60,898 bases of DNA from Candidatus Aminicenantes bacterium. GTDB taxonomy: Bacteria > Acidobacteriota > Aminicenantia > JAMOAD01. The position numbers and the translations under genes are program-made. How positions within the stretch are numbered: the stretch's first letter is position 1; each line of letters starts with the position of its first letter. The notes under the pieces are model-generated. The model was not told the origin of the DNA. It saw only the letters and a list, made by a program, of their open reading frames with translations, and ran no database searches. The stretch spans positions 1 through 60,898 of the forward strand of contig JALVQI010000229.1 in assembly GCA_027031485.1 (NCBI GenBank). The letters run 5' to 3'. Below are positions 1-55,762 of the stretch, piece by piece.

Positions 1-620
1 TTAAAATATGAATTTCTTCCTCTTTCATATCTGTCTGCAGGTATCACAACAAATTTCCCTTCCACACCTATGCACCAGAATTTTCCGTCTTTTTTTATAC
101 TTGCTAAGGTTCTTCCACTCATACCCGCACAATATATATCACCAAAAAACGGCTTTATCCCTTTATCATCCTTTATAAGAAGCCTACCGGTAAGAACACT
201 TCCTAATACAAGTTTAATTGTTAAATAATATTCTTTTCCCGCCTCAATATCAATAAAATATTTCCATTTCTCAGGCACATATGCAACTATTGTCCCCTCT
301 CTATTTAGAACAAATGTACTTACATAATATCTTCTTCCCGCCCGCAGTTTCTCAAAAGTAATAATTCCTTCTTTATTCGTAAAACCCTCCTTTCTTAATC
401 CACTCTCAAGATCAATCACATCAACATGAAAATTTGAAACAGGTTCTTTTTCACTTCCTTTAACTACTTTCACCCTGAGTCTTCCATAGCTCCTACAATA
501 AAGACTCATACTAAGCATAAACATAAACACCAAAACAACTAAAACCCCTCTGATAAAGGGTTTCCCGATGGATCGGGAGTTTGTCCCCCGTTTGAAACGG
601 GAGTTTGTTCCTCTTAACAT
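1..620 (-). CDS. Secreted protein with a carboxypeptidase-regulatory-like (prealbumin-type) beta domain; partial, runs off the left edge
   Basis: Not in the ORF track. Manual translation from ATG at 620 (GGAGG RBS upstream) gives MLRGTNSRFKRGTNSRSIGKPFIRGVLVVLVFMFMLSMSLYCRSYGRLRVKVVKGSEKEPVSNFHVDV...GFTNKEGIITFEKLRAGRRY, open to base 1. It has a signal peptide followed by a G-x-T-x-x-x-G-x-x-x-F-x-x-L-x-x-G-x-Y pattern. Confidence 0.7.
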   Translation of the reverse strand, partial: MLRGTNSRFKRGTNSRSIGKPFIRGVLVVLVFMFMLSMSLYCRSYGRLRVKVVKGSEKEPVSNFHVDVIDLESGLRKEGFTNKEGIITFEKLRAGRRYYVSTFVLNREGTIVAYVPEKWKYFIDIEAGKEYYLTIKLVLGSVLTGRLLIKDDKGIKPFFGDIYCAGMSGRTLASIKKDGKFWCIGVEGKFVVIPADRYERGRNSYF

Positions 621-745
621 ACTAACCTCCTATATATATTTTTTTTGTTAAATGTCATTTTAAATTCCAACAGCCCCAATTCACGATTAACGATTCACTA
701 TTCACAATTACCTCTTTCTCTTAACATACTAACCTCCTATATATA
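611..745. repeat. 28-bp exact direct repeat containing an RBS and start codon (copies at 611-638 and 718-745)
   Basis: CTCTTAACATACTAACCTCCTATATATA occurs twice. On the minus strand each copy contains GGAGG-TTAGT-ATG. Confidence 0.9.
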
Positions 746-1316
746 ATTTTTTATGATTAAATTCTTTTTCTGTTTATTATTATAATATTTTATATTATTA
801 AATTTTTCCTACCAGGTCAAAATCATTTTAAAACCGGGGAAAGCATTGAGGTGAATCGTGAATGGTTAATCGGAGTTGTTAGTGTTCGGTTTTTTGTTTT
901 TCTATTGGAAAGTAGCCTGTCCCGCACTTTCTTTCCAGTGGTAAATGAAAAGATGCATCAATTAAAGATTAATGTTAAAAGAAATCTTCACCAAAGTATC
1001 GCTAATCAAAAAAGATAGTGCGGGATGAATCGGAGTTGTTAGTGTTTGGTTTGTTGCTGTCTGCTGTTTTTTATAATTAACCGTAGGGGAAAGGTTAGCT
1101 TTGTGGTGAATTGTGAATTGGTGTTGTTAGTGGGTGGTTCATTGGTGTTTGTTGTTTTTTTATTTAATTTATAAAAAAAATAAAGAAAATAATTAATTAC
1201 AAGAAACTAACAACTTTCCTTCGTAGTCTGCTCAAGGCTCAAAGCTCAAGGCTCAATGCTATCATGTATTGCCCTGCAATAAATCCCCGATTTACGATTC
1301 ACGATTTACAATTCAC
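678..1316. repeat. Clusters of degenerate heptamer tandem repeats and a three-copy dispersed repeat
   Basis: TCACGAT/TCACAAT-type arrays at about 678-709 and 1288-1316, and reverse copies at about 851-870 and 1105-1120. A GCTCAAG/GCTCAAA array lies at about 1230-1260. AATCGGAGTTGTTAGTGTT occurs at 868 and 1028, with a degenerate copy at about 1116. Confidence 0.8.
920..1025. mobile_element. Possible MITE-like element bounded by 15-bp inverted repeats
   Basis: TCCCGCACTTTCTTT (920-934) and AAAGATAGTGCGGGA (1011-1025) are complementary at 14 of 15 positions. The interior is non-coding. Confidence 0.35.
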
Positions 1317-1319
1317 TTC

Positions 1320-2426
1320 TTATCTTACTTTCAATGATAACAAGGAGATTACTGTTAGTATTATTGCGATAATCCAGAGTCTTATCACTGCTTTGGGTTC
1401 TGCAATTCCCTCATGGGTCAAAGAGTGATGAAGCGGAGCTCTGTAAACAAGACGCCTACCCACTCTGTTCCCGATCTTTTCCTGTAGAAAGGATGTGAAA
1501 ATTTCAGCAATAAATACTCCTCCGCTTATTACAAATAAAAATTCCTGTTTTGTTAGAAATAGCATTAAAGCTATTGCTCCACCTATGGCAAGAGAGCCTG
1601 TATCTCCCATAAAAACTTCAGCTGGATAACTATTATACCAGAGAAACCCCATTATGGAGCCTATCAAAGCCGCCCCGAAAACAGTAATCTCCCCGCTTCC
1701 CTCAATGTATGGGAATAAATAGTGGGAAGCTGCAACAGAATTTCCTATTATATAAGCAAATATAGAATAAACTAGTATGGTTAAACTCGAAACTCCGCTT
1801 AAAAGCCCGTCCATTCCATCTGTTATGTTTATTGCATTTATAACAGAAAACATTACAAAGATTATAAAAACAACAAAACCAATCTCTCCGAGATTGAGAA
1901 TAGGGTTTTTATAAAAAGGAATGTATATCAGAGTCTTTATTTTCTGAGGCACAGGGCAGAGAGGCGATATATAGTATAAAGAAAATGGTATTATATAAAG
2001 TAGCATTAATATTGTTTTCCCCCATTGGCTTAATCCTGAAAGGGAAGATTTAAACCTTGATTTTTGAAAATCATCAAGAAAACCTACAAAACCAAAGTAT
2101 AAAAAGGCTGACAAAAGGATATAAAGAAAAGAATTTGTAAAATCTCCCCACAAAATCAAAGAGAAGAGAGTTGAGCTTATAATTAAGATTCCACCACCTG
2201 TGGGAGTTCCCCTTTTTGAGTAGGCATTGATTGAGAGCATCTCACCTGATGTGTCTCTGAACTTTTTCCTGTACAAAAAAAGTATGAATTTGAATCCGAA
2301 AATCAATGAGAATATAATGGATGTTCCCATTCCCATTATTGCCCTGAAAGTTATATAGTCCATTAATCTGAAAAAACCGTAGTTAATACCCGAAAGCTTT
2401 AAAAGTGCAATTATTAGTTCAATCAT
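1320..2426 (-). CDS. mraY: Phospho-N-acetylmuramoyl-pentapeptide transferase (MraY, divergent)
   Basis: Motifs GTPTGGG, GFLDD, NAINITDGMDGL, YPAEVFMGDTGSLAIGG and APLHH. The N-terminal YITFR motif and about 10 TM helices are present. Confidence 0.9.
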   Translation of the reverse strand: MIELIIALLKLSGINYGFFRLMDYITFRAIMGMGTSIIFSLIFGFKFILFLYRKKFRDTSGEMLSINAYSKRGTPTGGGILIISSTLFSLILWGDFTNSFLYILLSAFLYFGFVGFLDDFQKSRFKSSLSGLSQWGKTILMLLYIIPFSLYYISPLCPVPQKIKTLIYIPFYKNPILNLGEIGFVVFIIFVMFSVINAINITDGMDGLLSGVSSLTILVYSIFAYIIGNSVAASHYLFPYIEGSGEITVFGAALIGSIMGFLWYNSYPAEVFMGDTGSLAIGGAIALMLFLTKQEFLFVISGGVFIAEIFTSFLQEKIGNRVGRRLVYRAPLHHSLTHEGIAEPKAVIRLWIIAIILTVISLLSLKVR

Positions 2427-5400
2427 TCTTTATATCCTTCTAATATTTTAACAACTTTCATATATTTTTCCCTGACTCTGAATTCGGGTTTGAATTCAGA
2501 GGTTGTTATTAACATCTGTTTTATAAAATTCTTAACCTTCGTAAGATCTTCAAACTTCTTATTAATCAAGCCGCATTCTATACTTTCCAGCAGAGCTTCC
2601 CTTATTCTTATGTTTCTTGAAGAAAGATACTGTCTGTTAAATCTAAAAAACTCATCTTCACTTAAAAATAATACTCCCGCTCTTATTGCCTCGGCTTTCA
2701 CTTCAAAACTCTCGCTCTTTTTTGATAATTTTTCCATTATCTTATTTTTTATGGTTTGATCATCTTTTAAATTTTCATAAAATCTCCTGTAAAGTGAAAT
2801 GGCTTCTCTTCTAACCTCATAGTAAGAATCATCGAGAGCTCTTTCAATAATCTCTTTGAAAAAATCAAAGTATTTTTCAGATTTTCCGAATGCTATAAGG
2901 GAGTTTCTCCTTAAAAAGCCTTTGAAGTCCGAAAAGTTTTCATATATCCAGGGGTAAAGGTCTTCCCTTCTCAAACTTCCAATCAATTTAATAGCTTTGT
3001 TCACAACAAGATAATTATCTGATCTCATATATTCCCGAATCTTGTTATTGTACAACTTCACATAAAGGTTATCCTTACCTTTTTCTTGGACTGTTTTATC
3101 AAGGTATCTGATCAAACTATCAAAAAGTCTCCTAAACCTGACAAAACGAGGCTCTACAATTTCAATGAGAAAATCAAGAGGTTCGTCATTAAAGAGTTTT
3201 TTTACGGTATCCGCGATAATTTTATCAGAATTTTTAATTGAAAATTTTCCTATGTGCTGACTAAAGGATTTCAATTTTTCACTATCTTTTAACAGAGAAT
3301 AGATAAGTCCAATAAATTCCTTTTTATCTATATAATCAATACCTGTTTCAAAATCAAGTTTCTCAAAAATGATTTCAGCAGCTTTGCTTTCCACTATATT
3401 AATCGCATTTAATTCCTGATGATCTCCCGGAAGCCCTCTTTTGGGTACCAACACGGATGGTTTCCTTAAAGCTGCGATTTCAGATATGGCACCTGCTCCT
3501 GCTCTGCTGATAATCAAATCAGCCGCCTTTTGATAATTTACGATATCATGGATATATTTTATGCCTTTATAATAAAAGCCCTCCTTTGTTTTAACCTCAA
3601 AGTTTTTATCATCAAAGTCTTTACCAAGTTCGTTTTTAAGAATCGCTTTTGTGTCTTTATGGGAATCGTATTCCTCACTTTTCGCCAGACCGAGAGAATG
3701 GTAGATATACAATTTACTATTTTTCATCAATTCTTTCATTGAGTTGGCTGCTACTCTGTTTATACTCCTTGAACCGAGAGAACCTCCGGTTATAAGTATA
3801 AAAAACTTTTCTTCTGGTATCCCTAACTTTCTTTTCATCTCAGCTTTATCATATTCCCTATAATAATCCTCTCTCAGCGGATATCCACACAAAACACATC
3901 GGTTAGACCAGATAAAGTATGAGGTTTCCCTGTAATTAACCAACACAACATCAGCCATAAGTGAAGCAAACTTGTTTAAAAGTCCCGGAACAAAGTTTTG
4001 CTCCTCTATTACAATTTTTAATTTTAAAAATGGTTTTAAAAGAAATCCCGCAAAGACAACGGGAGCGGAAACATATCCACCGGTAGCAACAATAAGATGA
4101 GGTTTGAATTTCAAAATTTTAAGACCTGCTTGCAGTGTGCCTTTTATTATTTTAATTAAAACTTTAACCTTGTTTCCTGAAAATGGAGAAGAGGTTATAA
4201 ATTCAAGCTTTATGCCCTTCTTCTTTTTAATGATTTTTTCTTCAGCCCTTCCTCTGATGCCAAGATATAGAACATCACCGACAAACCCCTCCTTTTTTAA
4301 TATATTGTAAATTGAGAGAGACGGATAAACATGGCCACCTGTTCCTCCCCCTGTTAAAATCACTCTCTTTTTAGTGGAGTATCTCTTTCTCCAGAAACCA
4401 TATACTATTATCCCATAGGCAACAAATGATACTAAAAAAGCAAAACCAAGGTAAAAAAGCATTGACAAAAACCCGTGAATCTTATTGGAAAACAATTTAA
4501 AGATTAATAGAATCGGGACAAAGAAAAATGAAGCAAAAATAAGTTTGGCACTTGTTAATATAAACCTTTTGTATTCAATTTTTATTTTGAATTTTGAAAG
4601 ATATACAAGCAATATTATTGATTGGATAAAAATTGCTATAGCTGTTGCAAGGGCAATTCCTCCCTGTTTAAGAGATGTCCTGTAAAGAATAAAATCAAGA
4701 ACAATATTAATCAATCCCCCCCAGAAAGCAGCATAAAGCGGTAACTTATTATCTTCAAGAGCAGAATATACCCTGTTAAACAGAGCCACAAAACCACTCG
4801 GTAAAAGGGAAAGAGAATAATAAAAAAATGCAAGAGAAGTTTCGGAAACAGCAACACTGTCAAAGGCTCCTCTTTTATAGAAGAGAATTATTATCTCTTT
4901 TGAAAAAAGGAGAAAAAACAGTGTAATCGGGAAAAGGATAATCAGAATCAAATCAATTCCTGTACTTGTCATCTCTGAAAATTTTTTCATTTCTTTTTTC
5001 CCTCTTGATTTTGAAAGCTCCGGTGCAATGGTCCTTGATAGAGAAAGAGGTATTACTGAGATTGGAAGATTTATTATTCTGAAACTATACCAGAGAGATG
5101 AAATTGCTCCGCTTCCTATCAAAGATGCCACTATTCTATCTACAATCTGTGTGCTTTTTGTGATGAGTGATGATATTAATATCTTGGCGCCCTCCCTGAA
5201 GGATTTGCCTACACGAGCCGATTCCTTTGTTTTTTTCGATTCCATAAGATTTCTACCGATTTTTAAAAGTGCCGGAATCTGATAAAAGATAAAAGCTCCC
5301 GCACCAAGAAGATAGGCAAAAGCCATTGATTTTATACCGACTCTGGAATGAAAGAGAATCATAATAAAAATAATCGTGAGATTCATAAAAGCGGGAGCTG

Positions 5401-5890
5401 TGCTATAAATTAACTCTTTTCCGCTGAAAAGTAATATTGCTCCGAAGAAGGTTGAAATTGCTATCAATACCATGAACGGAGCAACTATTTTTGCAAGTTC
5501 AATTGTAAGCAAAAAGGTGTCGTGATCCATTCCGGGAGCGAGAATCTTAATAATAAACGGAAGAAAAATATAAATAATCGCTAAAAGCAAAATTGACACG
5601 ACAAAGGATATTAGAAAGGTTTTGATTAAAAATTTTCTTGCCTTCTCCTTTTTCCCTTCCTCAAACATTCTTTTGAATGGCGGAAGAAATGCTCTTTCGA
5701 ACATCTCCTCTCCCAAAACACGTCTGAATAAGTTGGGAACAGAGAAAGCTATGATAAAAGCATCATAGAGTTTACCACTACCGAAAAAGGCAGCTGCAAG
5801 GATCTCCCTTAAAAAGCCCAGAATCCTTGTAATCAATGTACCCCCGGCAATTAAAGAAGAACCTTTTAAAATTTCTTTCAAATTTTTCAT
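2423..5890 (-). CDS. murJ: MurJ (lipid II flippase)-MurG (GT28)-HEAT-like repeat triple fusion
   Basis: aa 1-500: TRILGFLRE, DAFIIAFSVPNLFRR, GGIALAT (MurJ). aa about 510-900: TGGGTGGHVYP, TGGYVSAP, EQN, GGSLGS, SRAGA, DHQELNA (MurG). C-terminus: ALDDSYYEVRREAI, ESFEVKAEAI, NIRIREAL (HEAT-like). Confidence 0.88.
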   Translation of the reverse strand: MKNLKEILKGSSLIAGGTLITRILGFLREILAAAFFGSGKLYDAFIIAFSVPNLFRRVLGEEMFERAFLPPFKRMFEEGKKEKARKFLIKTFLISFVVSILLLAIIYIFLPFIIKILAPGMDHDTFLLTIELAKIVAPFMVLIAISTFFGAILLFSGKELIYSTAPAFMNLTIIFIMILFHSRVGIKSMAFAYLLGAGAFIFYQIPALLKIGRNLMESKKTKESARVGKSFREGAKILISSLITKSTQIVDRIVASLIGSGAISSLWYSFRIINLPISVIPLSLSRTIAPELSKSRGKKEMKKFSEMTSTGIDLILIILFPITLFFLLFSKEIIILFYKRGAFDSVAVSETSLAFFYYSLSLLPSGFVALFNRVYSALEDNKLPLYAAFWGGLINIVLDFILYRTSLKQGGIALATAIAIFIQSIILLVYLSKFKIKIEYKRFILTSAKLIFASFFFVPILLIFKLFSNKIHGFLSMLFYLGFAFLVSFVAYGIIVYGFWRKRYSTKKRVILTGGGTGGHVYPSLSIYNILKKEGFVGDVLYLGIRGRAEEKIIKKKKGIKLEFITSSPFSGNKVKVLIKIIKGTLQAGLKILKFKPHLIVATGGYVSAPVVFAGFLLKPFLKLKIVIEEQNFVPGLLNKFASLMADVVLVNYRETSYFIWSNRCVLCGYPLREDYYREYDKAEMKRKLGIPEEKFFILITGGSLGSRSINRVAANSMKELMKNSKLYIYHSLGLAKSEEYDSHKDTKAILKNELGKDFDDKNFEVKTKEGFYYKGIKYIHDIVNYQKAADLIISRAGAGAISEIAALRKPSVLVPKRGLPGDHQELNAINIVESKAAEIIFEKLDFETGIDYIDKKEFIGLIYSLLKDSEKLKSFSQHIGKFSIKNSDKIIADTVKKLFNDEPLDFLIEIVEPRFVRFRRLFDSLIRYLDKTVQEKGKDNLYVKLYNNKIREYMRSDNYLVVNKAIKLIGSLRREDLYPWIYENFSDFKGFLRRNSLIAFGKSEKYFDFFKEIIERALDDSYYEVRREAISLYRRFYENLKDDQTIKNKIMEKLSKKSESFEVKAEAIRAGVLFLSEDEFFRFNRQYLSSRNIRIREALLESIECGLINKKFEDLTKVKNFIKQMLITTSEFKPEFRVREKYMKVVKILEGYKE

Positions 5891-6120
5891 CGCTTTCTCT
5901 CAAAATCCCCTTTTAACAGGATTATAAAAAAACTTTTTACCATAATTGCGATAATTTTTCAATCTCTTTAAAACTTCTTGAAGCTGCGATTTTATTAATT
6001 TCGTAAGCTATATCAAGTCTCATTTTCTAAGATCATTATCTAATTATCTAAAGGAGAGGTTAAAGCTTCTAAATATCAATGGAAAAACAAACAGAGTTTT
6101 TCTCAACATCATTCCTTTTA

Positions 6121-6816
6121 TTAATTTCCCAAAGAAAATTGAAAGCTTTTTCTTATGTGAATTTCCGTGGAATTAAAAACATGTACGGGAGAATCTTCCT
6201 GAGAGATGATTAAAGGTAATTCCGTACAACCTAAAATCACTCCCTTTGCTCCTTTCTCCCTCATTTTATTAATTATTGATTTTATAGCCTCTTTTGACTC
6301 CTTTTTTATTATATTCTTTGTAAGTTCATTATAGATAATTTCATCTATTTTCCTTCTATCCTCTTTCTCAGGGATTAGAATATCCGCACCCGATTTTTCT
6401 CCAAGCTCTTTCCTGTAAAAATCCTCCTCCATTGTAAAACGGGTACCAAAAAGAGCAACCCTCTCAATCCTCTTTCCTTTTATCTCTTCCGCAATCGCAT
6501 CAATTATGCTAATAAAGGGAATTTTTAGATTACCTTTTATTTTCGGTAAAATTTTATGAATTGTATTTGATGCAATTATTAGAAAATCTGCACCAGCTTT
6601 TTCAAGATTTAAAGCAGCTGATAGAACTCTTTCCTTAACTCCTTCCCAATCACCTTTACTCTGTAATTTTTCAATTTCATTAAAATTAATAGAGTATAAT
6701 ATTATATCCACTGTACTAAACCCGTTTCCGTATGCTTCCGATAATTCATTGAGACCAATGTAATACTCAACCGATGACTGCCAGCTCATGCCGCCTATAA
6801 TTCCGATTGTTTTCAT
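6121..6816 (-). CDS. Aspartate/glutamate racemase family protein (YgeA/RacX-like)
   Basis: MKTIGIIGGMSWQSS, ASNTIH, GTRFTM and ILGCTELP. Confidence 0.9.
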   Translation of the reverse strand: MKTIGIIGGMSWQSSVEYYIGLNELSEAYGNGFSTVDIILYSINFNEIEKLQSKGDWEGVKERVLSAALNLEKAGADFLIIASNTIHKILPKIKGNLKIPFISIIDAIAEEIKGKRIERVALFGTRFTMEEDFYRKELGEKSGADILIPEKEDRRKIDEIIYNELTKNIIKKESKEAIKSIINKMREKGAKGVILGCTELPLIISQEDSPVHVFNSTEIHIRKSFQFSLGN

Positions 6817-6922
6817 ATTTCAGTATTACAAAAACCTGAGAAAAAATCAATATCTTTCTCCAAAATTATTTTAATTTTTCCCATAATCTTCCAATAAAAT
6901 CATTAAGATGATATTATAGGAT

Positions 6923-7017
6923 ACTCCGAGCTGGAAAGGCTAAGGCAATCAGGCTATGTCTTCCAGCCGACAGGGTAAAGCCGGAAACAGCTTTGCCTCC
7001 CAATCCCGGAAAGGAGG
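6923..7017 (+). ncRNA. Moco/Tuco (molybdenum/tungsten cofactor) riboswitch-type leader
   Basis: CTCC(6924)...GGAG(7016) closing stem; GCTGGAA/TTCCAGC stem with internal CTAAG/TATG receptor; GGGTAAAGC-CGGAAACA-GCTTTGCCT stem; terminal GGAAAGGAG overlapping the RBS. It lies directly upstream of wtpA. Confidence 0.85.
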
Positions 7018-7022
7018 TTTTA

Positions 7023-7928
7023 ATGAAAAAGATTTTTTCAGTTTTATCAAGTCTGGTTTTAGTCAGTGGCTTTTTATTTCCCGAGCAAAAGTCAATCACG
7101 ATTTATCATGCGGGTTCTCTGTCCTATCCTTTTAAAATCATTGCCAAAAGATTTACTGAAAAGACGAAGATTAAAGTTTTTACAGAATCCGGAGGTTCAA
7201 GAGGTATAATCAGAAGAGTAACTGAGTTGGGAAAGAGAGCCGATATGGTTGCATCAGCCGATTATAGACTGATCAAAACAATGATGTTCCCGAAATTTGC
7301 GGATTTTTTGTATGAATTTGCAACAAATGAAATTGTCATAACTCTGAGTCCCGAATCAAAGTGGCTCGGAAAGATTAATACTTATAATTGGTATAAAATT
7401 GTTCAGAACAAGGATTTTATAATAGGGTACTCAGATCCTGAGCTTGATCCCTGTGGTTATAGATCACTTATGGTTATGCAGCTTGCGGAAAAATATTATA
7501 AAGAAAAAGGCTTTTACAATAGGATAAGAAAAAAGATCGGGGATAAATGGGTCAGGCCCAAATCGGTTGAACTTTTAGCCCTTCTTGAAACCGGTGAAAT
7601 GGATGCTGCTTTTGAGTATAAATCCGTGGCATTACAGCACAAACTTCCTTTTATATCATTACCTGAAAAGATTAATCTTAGTTCTCCGAAATATGAGAGT
7701 TTTTACAAAACAGCAAAGGTTTATTTAACTAAAAAAGGCGGTAAAAAGGTTGTAATTTATGGAAAATCCATTGTATACGGAATCACAATAGTAAAAAATT
7801 CTCCGAACAGAGAAGGAGCGGAAAAGTTTTTAAAGTTTCTATTATCAAAAGAGGGTCAGGAACTTTTGAAAAAAGCCTATCAGAGTCCGCTTATTCCACC
7901 TATCCTCTTAAAATACAAAGGAAAATAG
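7023..7928 (+). CDS. wtpA: Tungstate/molybdate ABC transporter substrate-binding protein
   Basis: HAGSL, ESGGS, DMVASADY, FATNEIV, SDPELDPCGYRS, RPKS, AFEYKSVALQH and IVYGITI. Start moved to ATG 7023 (GGAGG RBS, signal peptide). Confidence 0.9.
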   Translation: MKKIFSVLSSLVLVSGFLFPEQKSITIYHAGSLSYPFKIIAKRFTEKTKIKVFTESGGSRGIIRRVTELGKRADMVASADYRLIKTMMFPKFADFLYEFATNEIVITLSPESKWLGKINTYNWYKIVQNKDFIIGYSDPELDPCGYRSLMVMQLAEKYYKEKGFYNRIRKKIGDKWVRPKSVELLALLETGEMDAAFEYKSVALQHKLPFISLPEKINLSSPKYESFYKTAKVYLTKKGGKKVVIYGKSIVYGITIVKNSPNREGAEKFLKFLLSKEGQELLKKAYQSPLIPPILLKYKGK

Positions 7929-54779: not shown

Positions 54780-55762
54780 TTTCTATCCTCTTTTTCCAAT
54801 TTAAAAAATACACTATCTTCAAAGCTTGACATATAGAGCCCTTCTTCAAATTTACCTATGAAAGGTTTTATCCTTTCTCCGTTAACAAGCCTCAGAAGAA
54901 TCTCCATAAAATTCACTCCTGCAGCCTTTGTAAGCTGAATTCCTCCGGAAAAACGGGGATTAATCTCCGTAAAATATAGCTTTGAATTATCAGTTAAAAA
55001 ACCCTGAATATTCGCCGGTCCTTTTATTTCAAGAGCTTCGGCTATCTTTCTGGAGCTTTCGATTATCTTTCTGTTATAAAAAGTTTGACCTCTGTCCGAT
55101 ATGCCCGCTCTCACAGTCAACCTTTTTCTCGGTACTATGCTTAAAACAGTGCCATCAAAATCAGAAATCAAATCCACCGTAAACTCCTGACCTTTTATAT
55201 ACTGTTGAATAACAGGCTCCTTTACCTTTTTCAAATAAAAGTAAAGCTCTTCCTTATCTTTGATTTTATGACAATTAATGCTTCCCCTCCCGTACCTTGG
55301 CTTTATGAATAACGGAAATTTCAGACTCTCAACGGGGGGAAGATTATCCTTTGTCCAGGTCTCAGGTGTTTTAATTGAAATACTCTTAAAAAACTCAAAA
55401 GTTTTTATCTTATCATTTGAGATTAAAGCTGTTTTTTCCCCTGAACAGGCAACTATCACTTCCTTTTGAAGATATTCACTTTTTCTGCTCCCCCATAAAG
55501 GAAGTTCCAGATCCATAGTCGGAATCACGAGTTTTATTTTCTCTTTTTCGATTATCTTATCAAGCTCATGAAAATATTGAGGATCCTCTATAAGAGGAAC
55601 AATATATTTTTTATCCGCAAATCTGAGAGCAGGAGACAAAGGGTCACAATCAACGGCAATAACCTTTCCCATAAAATCAAATTTTCTTTTTAATTCAACA
55701 AAACCTCTTAGAAGAGCCACCTTCCTTGAAGCAGCAGTAATCAAAACATTTATTTCAGACAT
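54776..55762 (-). CDS. ATP-grasp domain protein (polysaccharide-biosynthesis type)
   Basis: NVLITAA, DK..TF, FIKPRYGRGS, QQYIKGQEFTVD and EINPRFSGG. Confidence 0.88.
   Translation of the reverse strand: MSEINVLITAASRKVALLRGFVELKRKFDFMGKVIAVDCDPLSPALRFADKKYIVPLIEDPQYFHELDKIIEKEKIKLVIPTMDLELPLWGSRKSEYLQKEVIVACSGEKTALISNDKIKTFEFFKSISIKTPETWTKDNLPPVESLKFPLFIKPRYGRGSINCHKIKDKEELYFYLKKVKEPVIQQYIKGQEFTVDLISDFDGTVLSIVPRKRLTVRAGISDRGQTFYNRKIIESSRKIAEALEIKGPANIQGFLTDNSKLYFTEINPRFSGGIQLTKAAGVNFMEILLRLVNGERIKPFIGKFEEGLYMSSFEDSVFFKLEKEDRN

Follow-up and report, generated by a model that had tools for sequence, protein, structure and literature searches.

A MurJ–MurG–HEAT fusion overlapping mraY as the only predicted lipid II synthesis and flipping genes of a Candidatus Aminicenantes genome

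MraY, MurG, and MurJ act in three consecutive steps of lipid II synthesis and flipping. Mycobacterial MviN/MurJ carries a cytoplasmic C-terminal pseudokinase domain, an extension with a regulatory role, whereas the one described below includes the enzyme acting just before MurJ. Natural chimeras of Mur proteins (MurE–MurF, MurG–MurC, MurC–MurB, MurC–Ddl, MurD–FtsW, and MraY–MurG), as given in the accessible part of a survey that excluded unidentified species, have been taken as a sign of multi-enzyme complexes (PMC10214165). No MurJ fusion was found in that part of the survey, and the name MurJ occurs once in the paper, in a figure legend (PMC10214165). The physical coupling of lipid II synthesis to flipping and the transfer route through MraY, MurG, and MurJ are debated, and one published view, as worded in the accessible part of its source, has the lipid transferred between separate enzymes along affinity gradients (PMC9046198).

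In the window analyzed here, a stretch of 60,898 nucleotides from a Candidatus Aminicenantes bacterium, MurJ and MurG differ from the stand-alone proteins in being joined in one chain with an added HEAT domain, and the genes lie outside the dcw cluster (Table 1). An earlier note on this DNA had proposed a single MurJ–MurG–HEAT frame whose stop overlaps the start of mraY. The open reading frame, free of internal stops, together with the Pfam and NCBIfam profiles, bears out a complete MurJ and a complete GT28-type MurG, which are followed by a HEAT-type solenoid tail (see below), and direct reading of the sequence gives the ATGA overlap (...GAATGATTG...), which suggests translational coupling of the fusion and mraY. 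The AF2 model of the whole fusion has a mean pLDDT of 87.8 and a pTM of 0.62, and does not fix the inter-domain geometry. Consensus matching alone yielded 33 promoter-like sites in the region against 24.1 expected, one of them ~100 nt upstream of the fusion ATG. An Asp/Glu racemase gene (6121..6816) is located directly upstream of the fusion. As the note had also stated, no other mur, ftsW, or ddl gene was found nearby: the Mur-ligase, FtsW/RodA, and transpeptidase matches are all on other contigs, and the contig of the fusion has one weak ATP-grasp match (38 bits, 54884–55432).

Table 1. Positions in the window of the fusion gene, its predicted domains, and adjoining features
Feature	Position	Strand	Basis
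MurJ–MurG–HEAT fusion, single 1155-aa ORF, stop codon included	2423..5890	−	Reading frame, Pfam, NCBIfam
MurJ domain (residues 1–500), predicted lipid II flippase, MOP superfamily	4391..5890	−	TIGR01695
MurG (GT28) domain (residues 508–900)	3191..4369	−	Pfam GT28_N and GT28_C
HEAT-type α-solenoid tail (residues 915–1155)	2426..3148	−	Profile, AF2, Foldseek, homology
Stop/start overlap ATGA, fusion stop with mraY start	2423..2426	−	Direct sequence reading
mraY, unit-specific subfamily	1320..2426	−	TIGR00445
Promoter-like site TTGATA-16-TAAAAT (10/12)	5989..6016	−	Consensus match

Both enzymatic and transport domains, and the neighboring MraY, align over their full length with stand-alone counterparts of solved structure (MurJ, 7waw/6cc4/5t77; MurG, 1f0k; MraY, 8g01/4j72), with the catalytic and cavity motifs largely kept. 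The MurJ domain, the predicted flippase of the fusion, matches PF03023 over residues 33–471 (E, 1.6e-77) and TIGR01695 with 310.1 bits (cut-off, 235.55; model positions 2–494 of 506), and its residues 7–505 align with positions 3–507 of the 511 in 7waw. In the cavity, R22, R28, D43, R56, and the Arg of WYSFR align with Arg/Asp residues of the E. coli chain, which we take to be the essential R18, R24, D39, R52, and R270. The 14-helix fold of MurJ presumably places both the N- and C-terminus in the cytoplasm (in–in topology), and in the AF2 model the last MurJ helix (residues 474–500) is connected by a basic linker of ~7 residues to the first MurG strand (508–515). The MurG domain, the predicted lipid II synthase, consists of GT28_N (PF03033, residues 510–650) and GT28_C (PF04101, residues 698–844). 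It covers positions 4–352 of the 353 in TIGR01133 at 209.6 bits, below the equivalog cut-off of 250.25; the HEAT-tailed MurGs of all five other genomes compared (194.7–240.4 bits) and the scores in 5 of 14 control genomes are also below that value. Against E. coli MurG (1f0k), the domain aligns in two pieces, separated by an insert of ~40 aa in the C-domain (roughly residues 737–775), and the donor-side residues are kept. The motifs GGGTGGH, EQN, GGSLGS, RAGAG...E, and the Arg of G-x-P-x-R are present, with GGSLG replacing GGSQG, and GYPLR replacing GNPVR with the Arg retained and the Asn lost. MraY, the predicted lipid I synthase of the unit and a GT4/PNPT protein, scores 256.7 bits with TIGR00445 (equivalog cut-off, 192.05), and its residues 16–368 align with positions 13–360 of 8g01 (226 bits); it has the DD, NxxDGxDGL, MGD, and HH motifs, with YRAP-HHS in place of PLHHHFE and PTGGG in place of PTMGG.

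The assignment of the tail as HEAT-type draws on its homologs as well as on its own fold. The tail of the fusion itself scores 20.4 bits with HEAT_2 (gathering threshold, 27.7; E, 6.2e-4), and of the 12 homologs of the tail in the alignment, 11 give HEAT profile matches (PF13646/PF02985) at E values up to 1, the best being 4.2e-26; one homolog (locus L035) reaches 85.3 bits. The homology alignment starts at residue 896 (nt 3205), the length of the tail being given as 240–260 aa. Modeled alone by AF2 (pLDDT, 86.6; pTM, 0.82), the tail forms an α-solenoid of paired helices, 13 helices in all, for which the best Foldseek matches are a designed armadillo, alphaRep, importin, and PP2A-A, all weak (E ≥ 1.4e-3; TM ~0.5), and its Atlas neighbors are HEAT clusters. 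Eleven residues are invariant over 26 tails (N69, K73, L74, R100, N101, D126, Y128, E130, V131, R132, and R202, in tail numbering). The domain is probably a coupling scaffold.

Comparison of genomes recovered the fusion followed by mraY in all six genomes of the family (three genera; 51–93% identity), and a permuted order, MurG–MurJ–HEAT followed by mraY, at seven of seven loci of two further families of the same class; in six other families of the class, all nine loci keep the dcw order murF–mraY–murD–ftsW–murG–murC. The fusion is one form of a more widespread unit, in which MurG–HEAT is directly followed by mraY at 78 of 80 tail-bearing loci, the other two stopping at a contig edge. According to the submitters' labels, its carriers include Acidobacteriota, Desulfacinum, Syntrophobacterales, Gemmatimonadales, and others. 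The flanks of ~6 kb lack dcw genes in 78 of the 80 unit loci, and the HEAT-tailed MurG and the neighboring MraY are the sole copies in each of five diverse genomes tested. The murJ gene is fused or adjacent in many unit loci; where it is unfused, 3 loci have it upstream, 7 to 10 have it downstream of mraY, and the remainder have it elsewhere. A literature search found no description of the unit. This wider unit, the permuted sister fusion, and the emptied dcw cluster described below go beyond what the earlier note had seen.

In the MraY tree, the unit MraYs are separated from the dcw MraYs with 100% support, and the trees nest MurJ–MurG–HEAT among loci with unfused murJ, murG–HEAT, and mraY (95–98% support). 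A single origin of the two fusion orders is rejected for both MraY (p-AU, 2.9e-10) and MurG (p-AU, 1.0e-12). Judging from these trees, MurJ joined the unit twice, as MurJ–MurG–HEAT and, in the sister families, as MurG–MurJ–HEAT; the former would have originated from an adjacent upstream murJ that fused to MurG–HEAT through loss of the intergenic stop. It looks as if the dcw copies of mraY and murG in this lineage were replaced by the MurG–HEAT and mraY unit outside the dcw cluster. As the unit loci form one clade of non-independent kin, the adjacency of the tail to mraY may go back to one event that was then inherited.

On balance, we regard it as probable that the fusion gene and mraY form an operon encoding the sole, housekeeping apparatus with which the organism carries out the three membrane steps of peptidoglycan precursor synthesis, with the HEAT tail as a coupling scaffold. 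MraY would make lipid I, the MurG domain would add GlcNAc to convert it to lipid II, and the MurJ domain, on the same chain, would flip the product. The short basic linker after the last MurJ helix would pin the acceptor-binding N-domain of MurG at the cytoplasmic face of the membrane by the flippase, so that lipid II would be produced right at its site of uptake. The HEAT solenoid, acting as a protein-binding scaffold, would couple the fusion to MraY, or possibly to another partner. We infer the activities, the product hand-off, and the HEAT partner from comparison, and the channelled synthesis-and-flip machine proposed in the earlier note is consistent with the comparative genomics. More tentatively, a hitherto undescribed, phylum-spanning lipid II unit, made up of MurG–HEAT and a His-poor MraY and joined repeatedly by MurJ through adjacency and two separate fusions, might have replaced dcw mraY and murG and work as one physical complex, in which HEAT docks MraY and the lipid stays bound while it is passed from MraY to MurG to MurJ; if so, the fused forms would be natural single-chain synthase–flippases.

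The fusion could also be housekeeping but mechanistically neutral, providing equal dosage, co-localization, or stability of MurJ and MurG, while the tail binds a partner other than MraY, for example a regulator, the Mur ligases, or a protein of the cytoskeleton or divisome; we consider this possible, but not the favored explanation. Natural Mur chimeras join non-consecutive enzymes too, such as MurG–MurC and MurD–FtsW in the accessible part of the survey (PMC10214165). The matches of the tail are generic ARM/HEAT folds, and it is tied to no single enzyme domain because it follows MurG in one architecture and MurJ in the other. However, fusion has brought MurJ into the unit at least twice, and murJ is also found as a neighbor of the unit, on one side or the other, a pattern hard to account for unless MurG and MurJ are functionally linked; moreover, the tail is the last domain ahead of mraY in 78 of the 80 loci, and the unit MraY has substitutions of its own. 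By the gene-fusion argument, the two separate fusions of MurJ and MurG speak, on comparative grounds, for direct action of MurJ on the product of MurG, and they suggest that the synthesis and flipping steps are physically linked.

An altered precursor (in sugar donor, stem, or carrier lipid), made and flipped by the unit as the main wall pathway, with the changes in HHH, GNP, and GGSQG (to GGSLG) marking a new specificity, appears improbable, even though the substitutions are systematic. The four motif deviations listed in the earlier note (PTGGG and HHS in MraY; EEQN and GYP in MurG) are all found in the sequence, and as signs of altered specificity they differ in value. The third His of HHH is present in 0 of 77 unit MraYs (of 81, four did not fit the search pattern) versus nine of nine dcw MraYs of the same class, and the Asn of GNP in 0 of 65 unit MurGs versus nine of nine dcw MurGs of the class. 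These two losses are thus unit-wide hallmarks, whereas PTGGG is limited to the family of the fusion and its closest kin, and EEQN carries little weight because the same His is Leu or Met in seven of nine canonical dcw MurGs of the class. As read from these alignments, both enzymes of the unit changed together. The sub-cut-off MurG score and the C-domain insert could likewise be taken to favor an altered precursor. Against it, MurC, MurD, MurE (meso-DAP type, 530.8 bits), and MurF of the source genome are all above their own equivalog or subfamily cut-offs, implying a standard UDP-MurNAc-pentapeptide; FtsW, RodA, and the PBPs are of the usual kind; and MurG retains its donor-side residues.

That the unit is an accessory, second pathway serving a polymer other than peptidoglycan, the other option raised in the earlier note, might be read from the location outside the dcw cluster and the divergent motifs, but is highly unlikely. 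The source genome has no murG besides that of the fusion, and no murJ or mraY above cut-off besides those of the fusion and the adjoining gene; further profile matches are weak GT4 or MOP paralogs (34–74 bits). Because these are the only copies, the second-pathway reading fails, while the fusion itself stands, as the note had foreseen for this outcome. Since the assembly is fragmented (245 contigs) and 5.8% contaminated, "only copy" leans on its 97.8% completeness and on the same outcome in relatives: searches with a protein query found no other MurG in the five other genomes of the family, nor was one found in five distant carriers. On a separate contig, the dcw cluster of the genome reads ftsI–murE–murF–murD–ftsW–murC and lacks exactly mraY and murG; murF overlaps murD and ftsW overlaps murC, therefore leaving no space for either gene. 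The rest of the pathway is in place, with ftsQAZ, murA, murB, class B PBPs, rodA and PBP2 (contig C145), and a ddl split across contig ends. Finally, an assembly or frameshift artefact joining two genes, for which no supporting point was found, can be dismissed, since the junction singled out for checking in the note (4370–4400) is spanned by contigs of three studies (X1 record 3, possibly from the source sample; X3 record 15; and X5 record 19), all showing 0 differences and 0 indels, and the frame is colinear in the six family genomes and at full length in 32 protein clusters (41–93% identity).

With both proteins in a single chain, the fusion lends itself to structural studies of the hand-off, and cultured carriers of the unfused unit, e.g., Desulfacinum infernum DSM 9756 (as labelled), make the HEAT partner testable. 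Although the dcw cluster is supposed to be very stable, mraY and murG have disappeared from it in several lineages. The hallmarks defined here explain why unit MurGs score below annotation cut-offs. Compared with the stand-alone proteins, the unit MraY lacks the third His, and the MurG of the fusion has GYP, the insert, and a sub-cut-off score. The MurG–HEAT (~650–740 aa) and mraY units, including that of D. infernum, have the same MurG subfamily, tail, neighbor, and hallmarks as the fusion, but murJ as a separate gene. The MurG–MurJ–HEAT proteins of the sister families (1073–1330 aa) share with it the three domains, a homologous tail, the downstream mraY, and the MraY/MurG hallmarks, and differ in the permuted order, with MurJ between MurG and the tail, and in their separate origin on both trees. 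Like the known Mur chimeras, the present protein is a gene fusion of peptidoglycan-precursor proteins; it differs from them in uniting a predicted synthase with a predicted flippase, plus a non-enzymatic repeat domain.

The MurJ-MurG-HEAT fusion is a single open frame coupled to mraY, as the earlier note had claimed, with the fusion stop and the mraY start codon overlapping (ATGA) and a promoter-like hexamer pair located ~100 nt 5′ of the fusion. The one polypeptide contains three intact domains, of which the first two are assigned by Pfam (MurJ at residues 33–471, GT28_N at 510–650, and GT28_C at 698–844), and the third appears as stacked helices at residues 915–1151 in the AlphaFold2 model. 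With the NCBIfam models, the MurJ part scores 310.1 bits (cut-off, 235.55), the MurG part 209.6 bits with near-whole coverage of the model (under the cut-off of 250.25), and the neighbouring MraY 256.7 bits (cut-off, 192.05). The AlphaFold2 model of the full-length fusion (56 homologues used; mean pLDDT, 87.8; pTM, 0.62), read for confidence and secondary structure rather than for domain contacts, ends the final MurJ membrane helix (residues 474–500) shortly before the first MurG strand (residues 508–515), so that the two domains are joined by a Lys/Arg-rich linker of ~7 residues. The transmembrane topology of MurJ was taken from alignment to solved MurJ; a crude hydropathy scan could not count the helices.

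Features of the window and of other contigs (C numbers) of the same genome
Feature	Position	Strand	Length or match
MurJ-MurG-HEAT ORF	2423..5890	-	1155 aa
mraY ORF	1320..2426	-	368 aa
Gap downstream of mraY	620-1320		~700 bp
Asp/Glu racemase	6121-6816	-	TIGR00035, 200.5 bits
Moco riboswitch	6912-7032	+	Rfam RF01055, 77.1 bits, E 6.3e-17
Solute-binding protein ORF	6993..7928		SBP_bac_11
Weak MurJ-like MOP transporter	C218:35442-36803		34 bits
Weak MraY/WecA-like GT4	C218:45063-45947		74 bits
ddl, C-terminal piece	C230:6-170
ddl, N-terminal piece	C140:3-266

The Asp/Glu racemase just upstream of the fusion was rejected as a part of the unit, its sole recurrence being at L049, a locus of the same genus, with none at L051 or L052 (>3 kb of upstream flank); it is probably outside the unit and could supply D-amino acids. 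Farther upstream, the Moco (molybdenum/tungsten cofactor) riboswitch is directly 5′ of the solute-binding protein ORF and overlaps its listed TTG start, and this ORF is probably a riboswitch-controlled gene for molybdate or tungstate uptake. The gap downstream of mraY, unusually long for this compact genome, is free of Rfam matches at the gathering threshold and, on both strands, of ORFs of at least 60 aa.

A homologue search with the fusion, restricted by length, yielded 32 clusters of colinear full-length fusions (1152–1183 aa; 41–93% identity), whose named sources are Acidobacteria/Acidobacteriota MAGs, and 51 clusters of MurG plus tail without MurJ (636–741 aa), besides a small number of forms that are longer or more distantly related. 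The protein P0075 (1192 aa) has the colinear MurJ-MurG-HEAT architecture at just 30% identity and may represent a further, distant fusion lineage, and P0081 (674 aa) has GT28 domains together with FAD-oxidoreductase Pfam families. Among the window genome and 30 relatives (31 genomes), the colinear fusion is present in all six genomes of the window family (three genera), a one-frame MurG-MurJ-tail order in ten genomes from two other families of the same class (confirmed by Pfam on two proteins), and separate MurJ and MurG in 14 genomes of six further families. mraY is located directly 3′ of the fusion at 6 of 6 MurJ-MurG-HEAT loci and 7 of 7 MurG-MurJ-HEAT loci, and the unfused families have the textbook order murF-mraY-murD-ftsW-murG-murC at 9 of 9 loci. 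An eleventh genome from these two families (G029, family f2; 93% complete) is alone among the 31 in having no match to the fusion protein, through what may be incompleteness or genuine loss.

The wider unit was surveyed by a tail scan with one genome per species. By HMMs from alignments made in this analysis, the resulting 80 loci were classified as MurG-MurJ-tail followed by mraY (28), MurG-tail followed by mraY (26), MurG-tail, mraY, and murJ in this order (7), MurJ-MurG-tail followed by mraY (4), murJ, MurG-tail, and mraY in this order (3), and forms cut off at contig ends or disrupted by frameshifts (12). mraY is immediately 3′ of the tail at 78 loci, the other two stopping at a contig edge, and any gene of the division and cell wall (dcw) cluster is found in the flanks of just two. 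According to the submitters' record titles, which are approximate and in part unreliable, the carriers include Candidatus Aminicenantes, Acidobacteriota (Thermoanaerobaculaceae, Vicinamibacterales), Desulfacinum infernum DSM 9756, Syntrophobacterales, Gemmatimonadales, KSB1, Calditrichaeota, Delongbacteria, and others; at some MurG-MurJ-HEAT loci whose titles name Clostridia, Chrysiogenales, or Patescibacteria, the MraY matches that of window-class genomes exactly or nearly so. A 661-aa member of the unit is a RefSeq protein encoded on a 2.32-Mb contig. Five diverse carriers have no real MurG besides the HEAT-tailed one and no MraY above the cut-off besides the one adjoining it. At locus L067 (KSB1 single-cell genome; 2980–6648), murJ ends at 4626 and the murG-HEAT frame opens at 4630, in the same reading frame with one stop codon between them, which is one step short of the MurJ-MurG-HEAT fusion; murF and murC come after mraY at this locus. 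At L103, L106, and L110 (contigs of 141 kb to 1.5 Mb), MurG and the tail, and also MraY in L103, are in different or merged frames, which look like assembly frameshift errors rather than real architectures.

MraY trees (FastTree, 90 rows; IQ-TREE quick, 39 rows) split the unit from the dcw sequences with full support. The MurJ-MurG-tail family (96–98% support) is nested in them with loci L053 and L054, in which a separate murJ directly precedes MurG-tail, and with the MurG-tail loci L055–L057; the MurG-MurJ-tail forms are placed elsewhere. A single clade for both fusion orders was rejected with MraY (delta lnL, 139.9; p-AU, 2.9e-10) and with the MurG domain (delta lnL, 141.9; p-AU, 1.0e-12), in tests whose groups were named after viewing the first tree, with a quick search under LG+G4 and many composition-skewed rows. 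murJ has been recruited repeatedly. In the simplest reading, an ancestral MurG-HEAT and mraY operon would have been established outside the dcw cluster; the adjacent upstream murJ would then have been fused in the window family through loss of the intervening stop, and MurJ would have been inserted independently between MurG and the tail elsewhere. Both domain orders are topologically sound because both ends of MurJ are cytoplasmic (MurJ structure papers), as are MurG and the tail.

The tail (the final 240–260 residues) is a HEAT/ARM-type repeat domain, homologous across both fusion orders and with invariant motifs including VN-GIKL, GF-RRN, and D-YYEVR. By itself, the window tail is under the Pfam HEAT_2 threshold, and of 12 aligned tails, 11 have a HEAT_2 match at E up to 1 (best, 4.2e-26). 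Modelled separately (pLDDT, 86.6; pTM, 0.82), the tail is an alpha-solenoid, and its Atlas neighbours are HEAT clusters. Its best, weak neighbours in a Foldseek search against the PDB (designed armadillo, alphaRep, importins, and PP2A-A) are generic solenoids only, giving no clue to a specific partner. Searching 1.84 billion representatives with the tail profile gave 205 matches under 1e-30, which mix giant generic multi-HEAT proteins with the true family (one full-length stretch in proteins of ~650–740 and 1150–1270 aa, plus fragments) and were not used for counts.

HEAT/ARM repeat domains usually bind proteins or extended peptides, and the HEAT domain is a putative scaffold here. MraY would be its most economical partner because mraY always follows and a cytoplasmic motif of MraY is changed, and other partners are possible. 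A complex prediction for MraY and the tail, run without controls, scored 0.07 (mark, 0.32) and counts neither for nor against binding. The undecaprenyl tail is proposed to lie in a groove formed by the last helices of MurJ, and the short tether would hold the acceptor domain of MurG at the membrane beside these helices. Such tethering would make a direct hand-off of lipid II more likely. In one rival explanation, the fusion affects only dosage or stability.

Another rival is an altered precursor. Of the four motif deviations that the earlier note regarded as consistent with altered specificity, two, HHH>HHS in MraY and GNP>GYP in MurG, stand as parallel, unit-wide substitutions. The third His of HHH is replaced in all 77 pattern-matching unit MraYs (Thr 35, Gln 16, Ser 13, Ala 6, Asn 4, Gly 2, and Glu 1; 4 of 81 gave no pattern match), and the Asn of GNP is kept in none of 65 unit MurGs (GYP 54, GIP 8, GMP 2, and GLP 1); the dcw proteins of the class keep HHH-FE in 9 of 9 MraYs and GNP in 9 of 9 MurGs. 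The other two fared less well: PTMGG>PT(G/A)GG is confined to the window family and its nearest kin, and HEQN>EEQN carries little weight and was dropped as a marker of specificity, since 56 of 66 unit MurGs retain the His and several dcw MurGs of the class have Leu or Met in its place. All remaining catalytic motifs of MurJ, MurG, and MraY are present. The Mur ligases of the window genome score as standard, so that by default, the precursor is expected to be a standard one.

The proposal of a second pathway fails. In profile searches of the genome (2.97 Mb in 245 contigs; 97.8% complete, 5.8% contamination), the fusion provides the only murG match and the only murJ above the cut-off, and the neighbouring mraY is likewise the only one above it; a canonical dcw mraY/murG and a stand-alone murJ were sought and are absent above the cut-offs. 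Any other matches are to weak paralogues (GT4 and MOP), either on C218 or in another part of the window; the pair on C218, ~8 kb apart, probably belongs to a polysaccharide locus equipped with a dedicated flippase and initiating transferase. The remainder of the pathway is in place and ordinary: murA and murB were found, contig C4 encodes four Mur ligases, FtsW, and FtsI, and C145 encodes RodA and a second class B PBP. Good ddl matches are found only at two contig ends, and an assembly break, not the absence of the gene, seems to be the reason. On C4, the dcw cluster has the order rsmH, a small ORF, ftsI, murE, murF, murD, ftsW, murC, ftsQ, ftsA, and ftsZ; since the murF and murD ORFs overlap, as do those of ftsW and murC, mraY and murG are cleanly missing from their usual slots. 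Both genes are relocated, not duplicated. Finally, an artefact is dismissed by contigs from three runs of three studies (one run may be the source sample), which cross the junction that had raised concern (4370–4400) with no differing letters or indels, and the fusion is confirmed as real. The sequencing runs listed for this DNA include no RNA run.

In the databases, these proteins are labelled plainly as MurJ or MurG. No natural MurJ-MurG fusion or HEAT-tailed MurG was found in the full-text literature covered, which includes a 2023 survey of Mur chimeras (PMC10214165), whose supplementary information might list rarer chimeras, and lies outside subscription journals and supplements; the text searches turned up laboratory reporter fusions only. 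The broader unit around the fusion has apparently gone unreported, and all of its parts come from known families.
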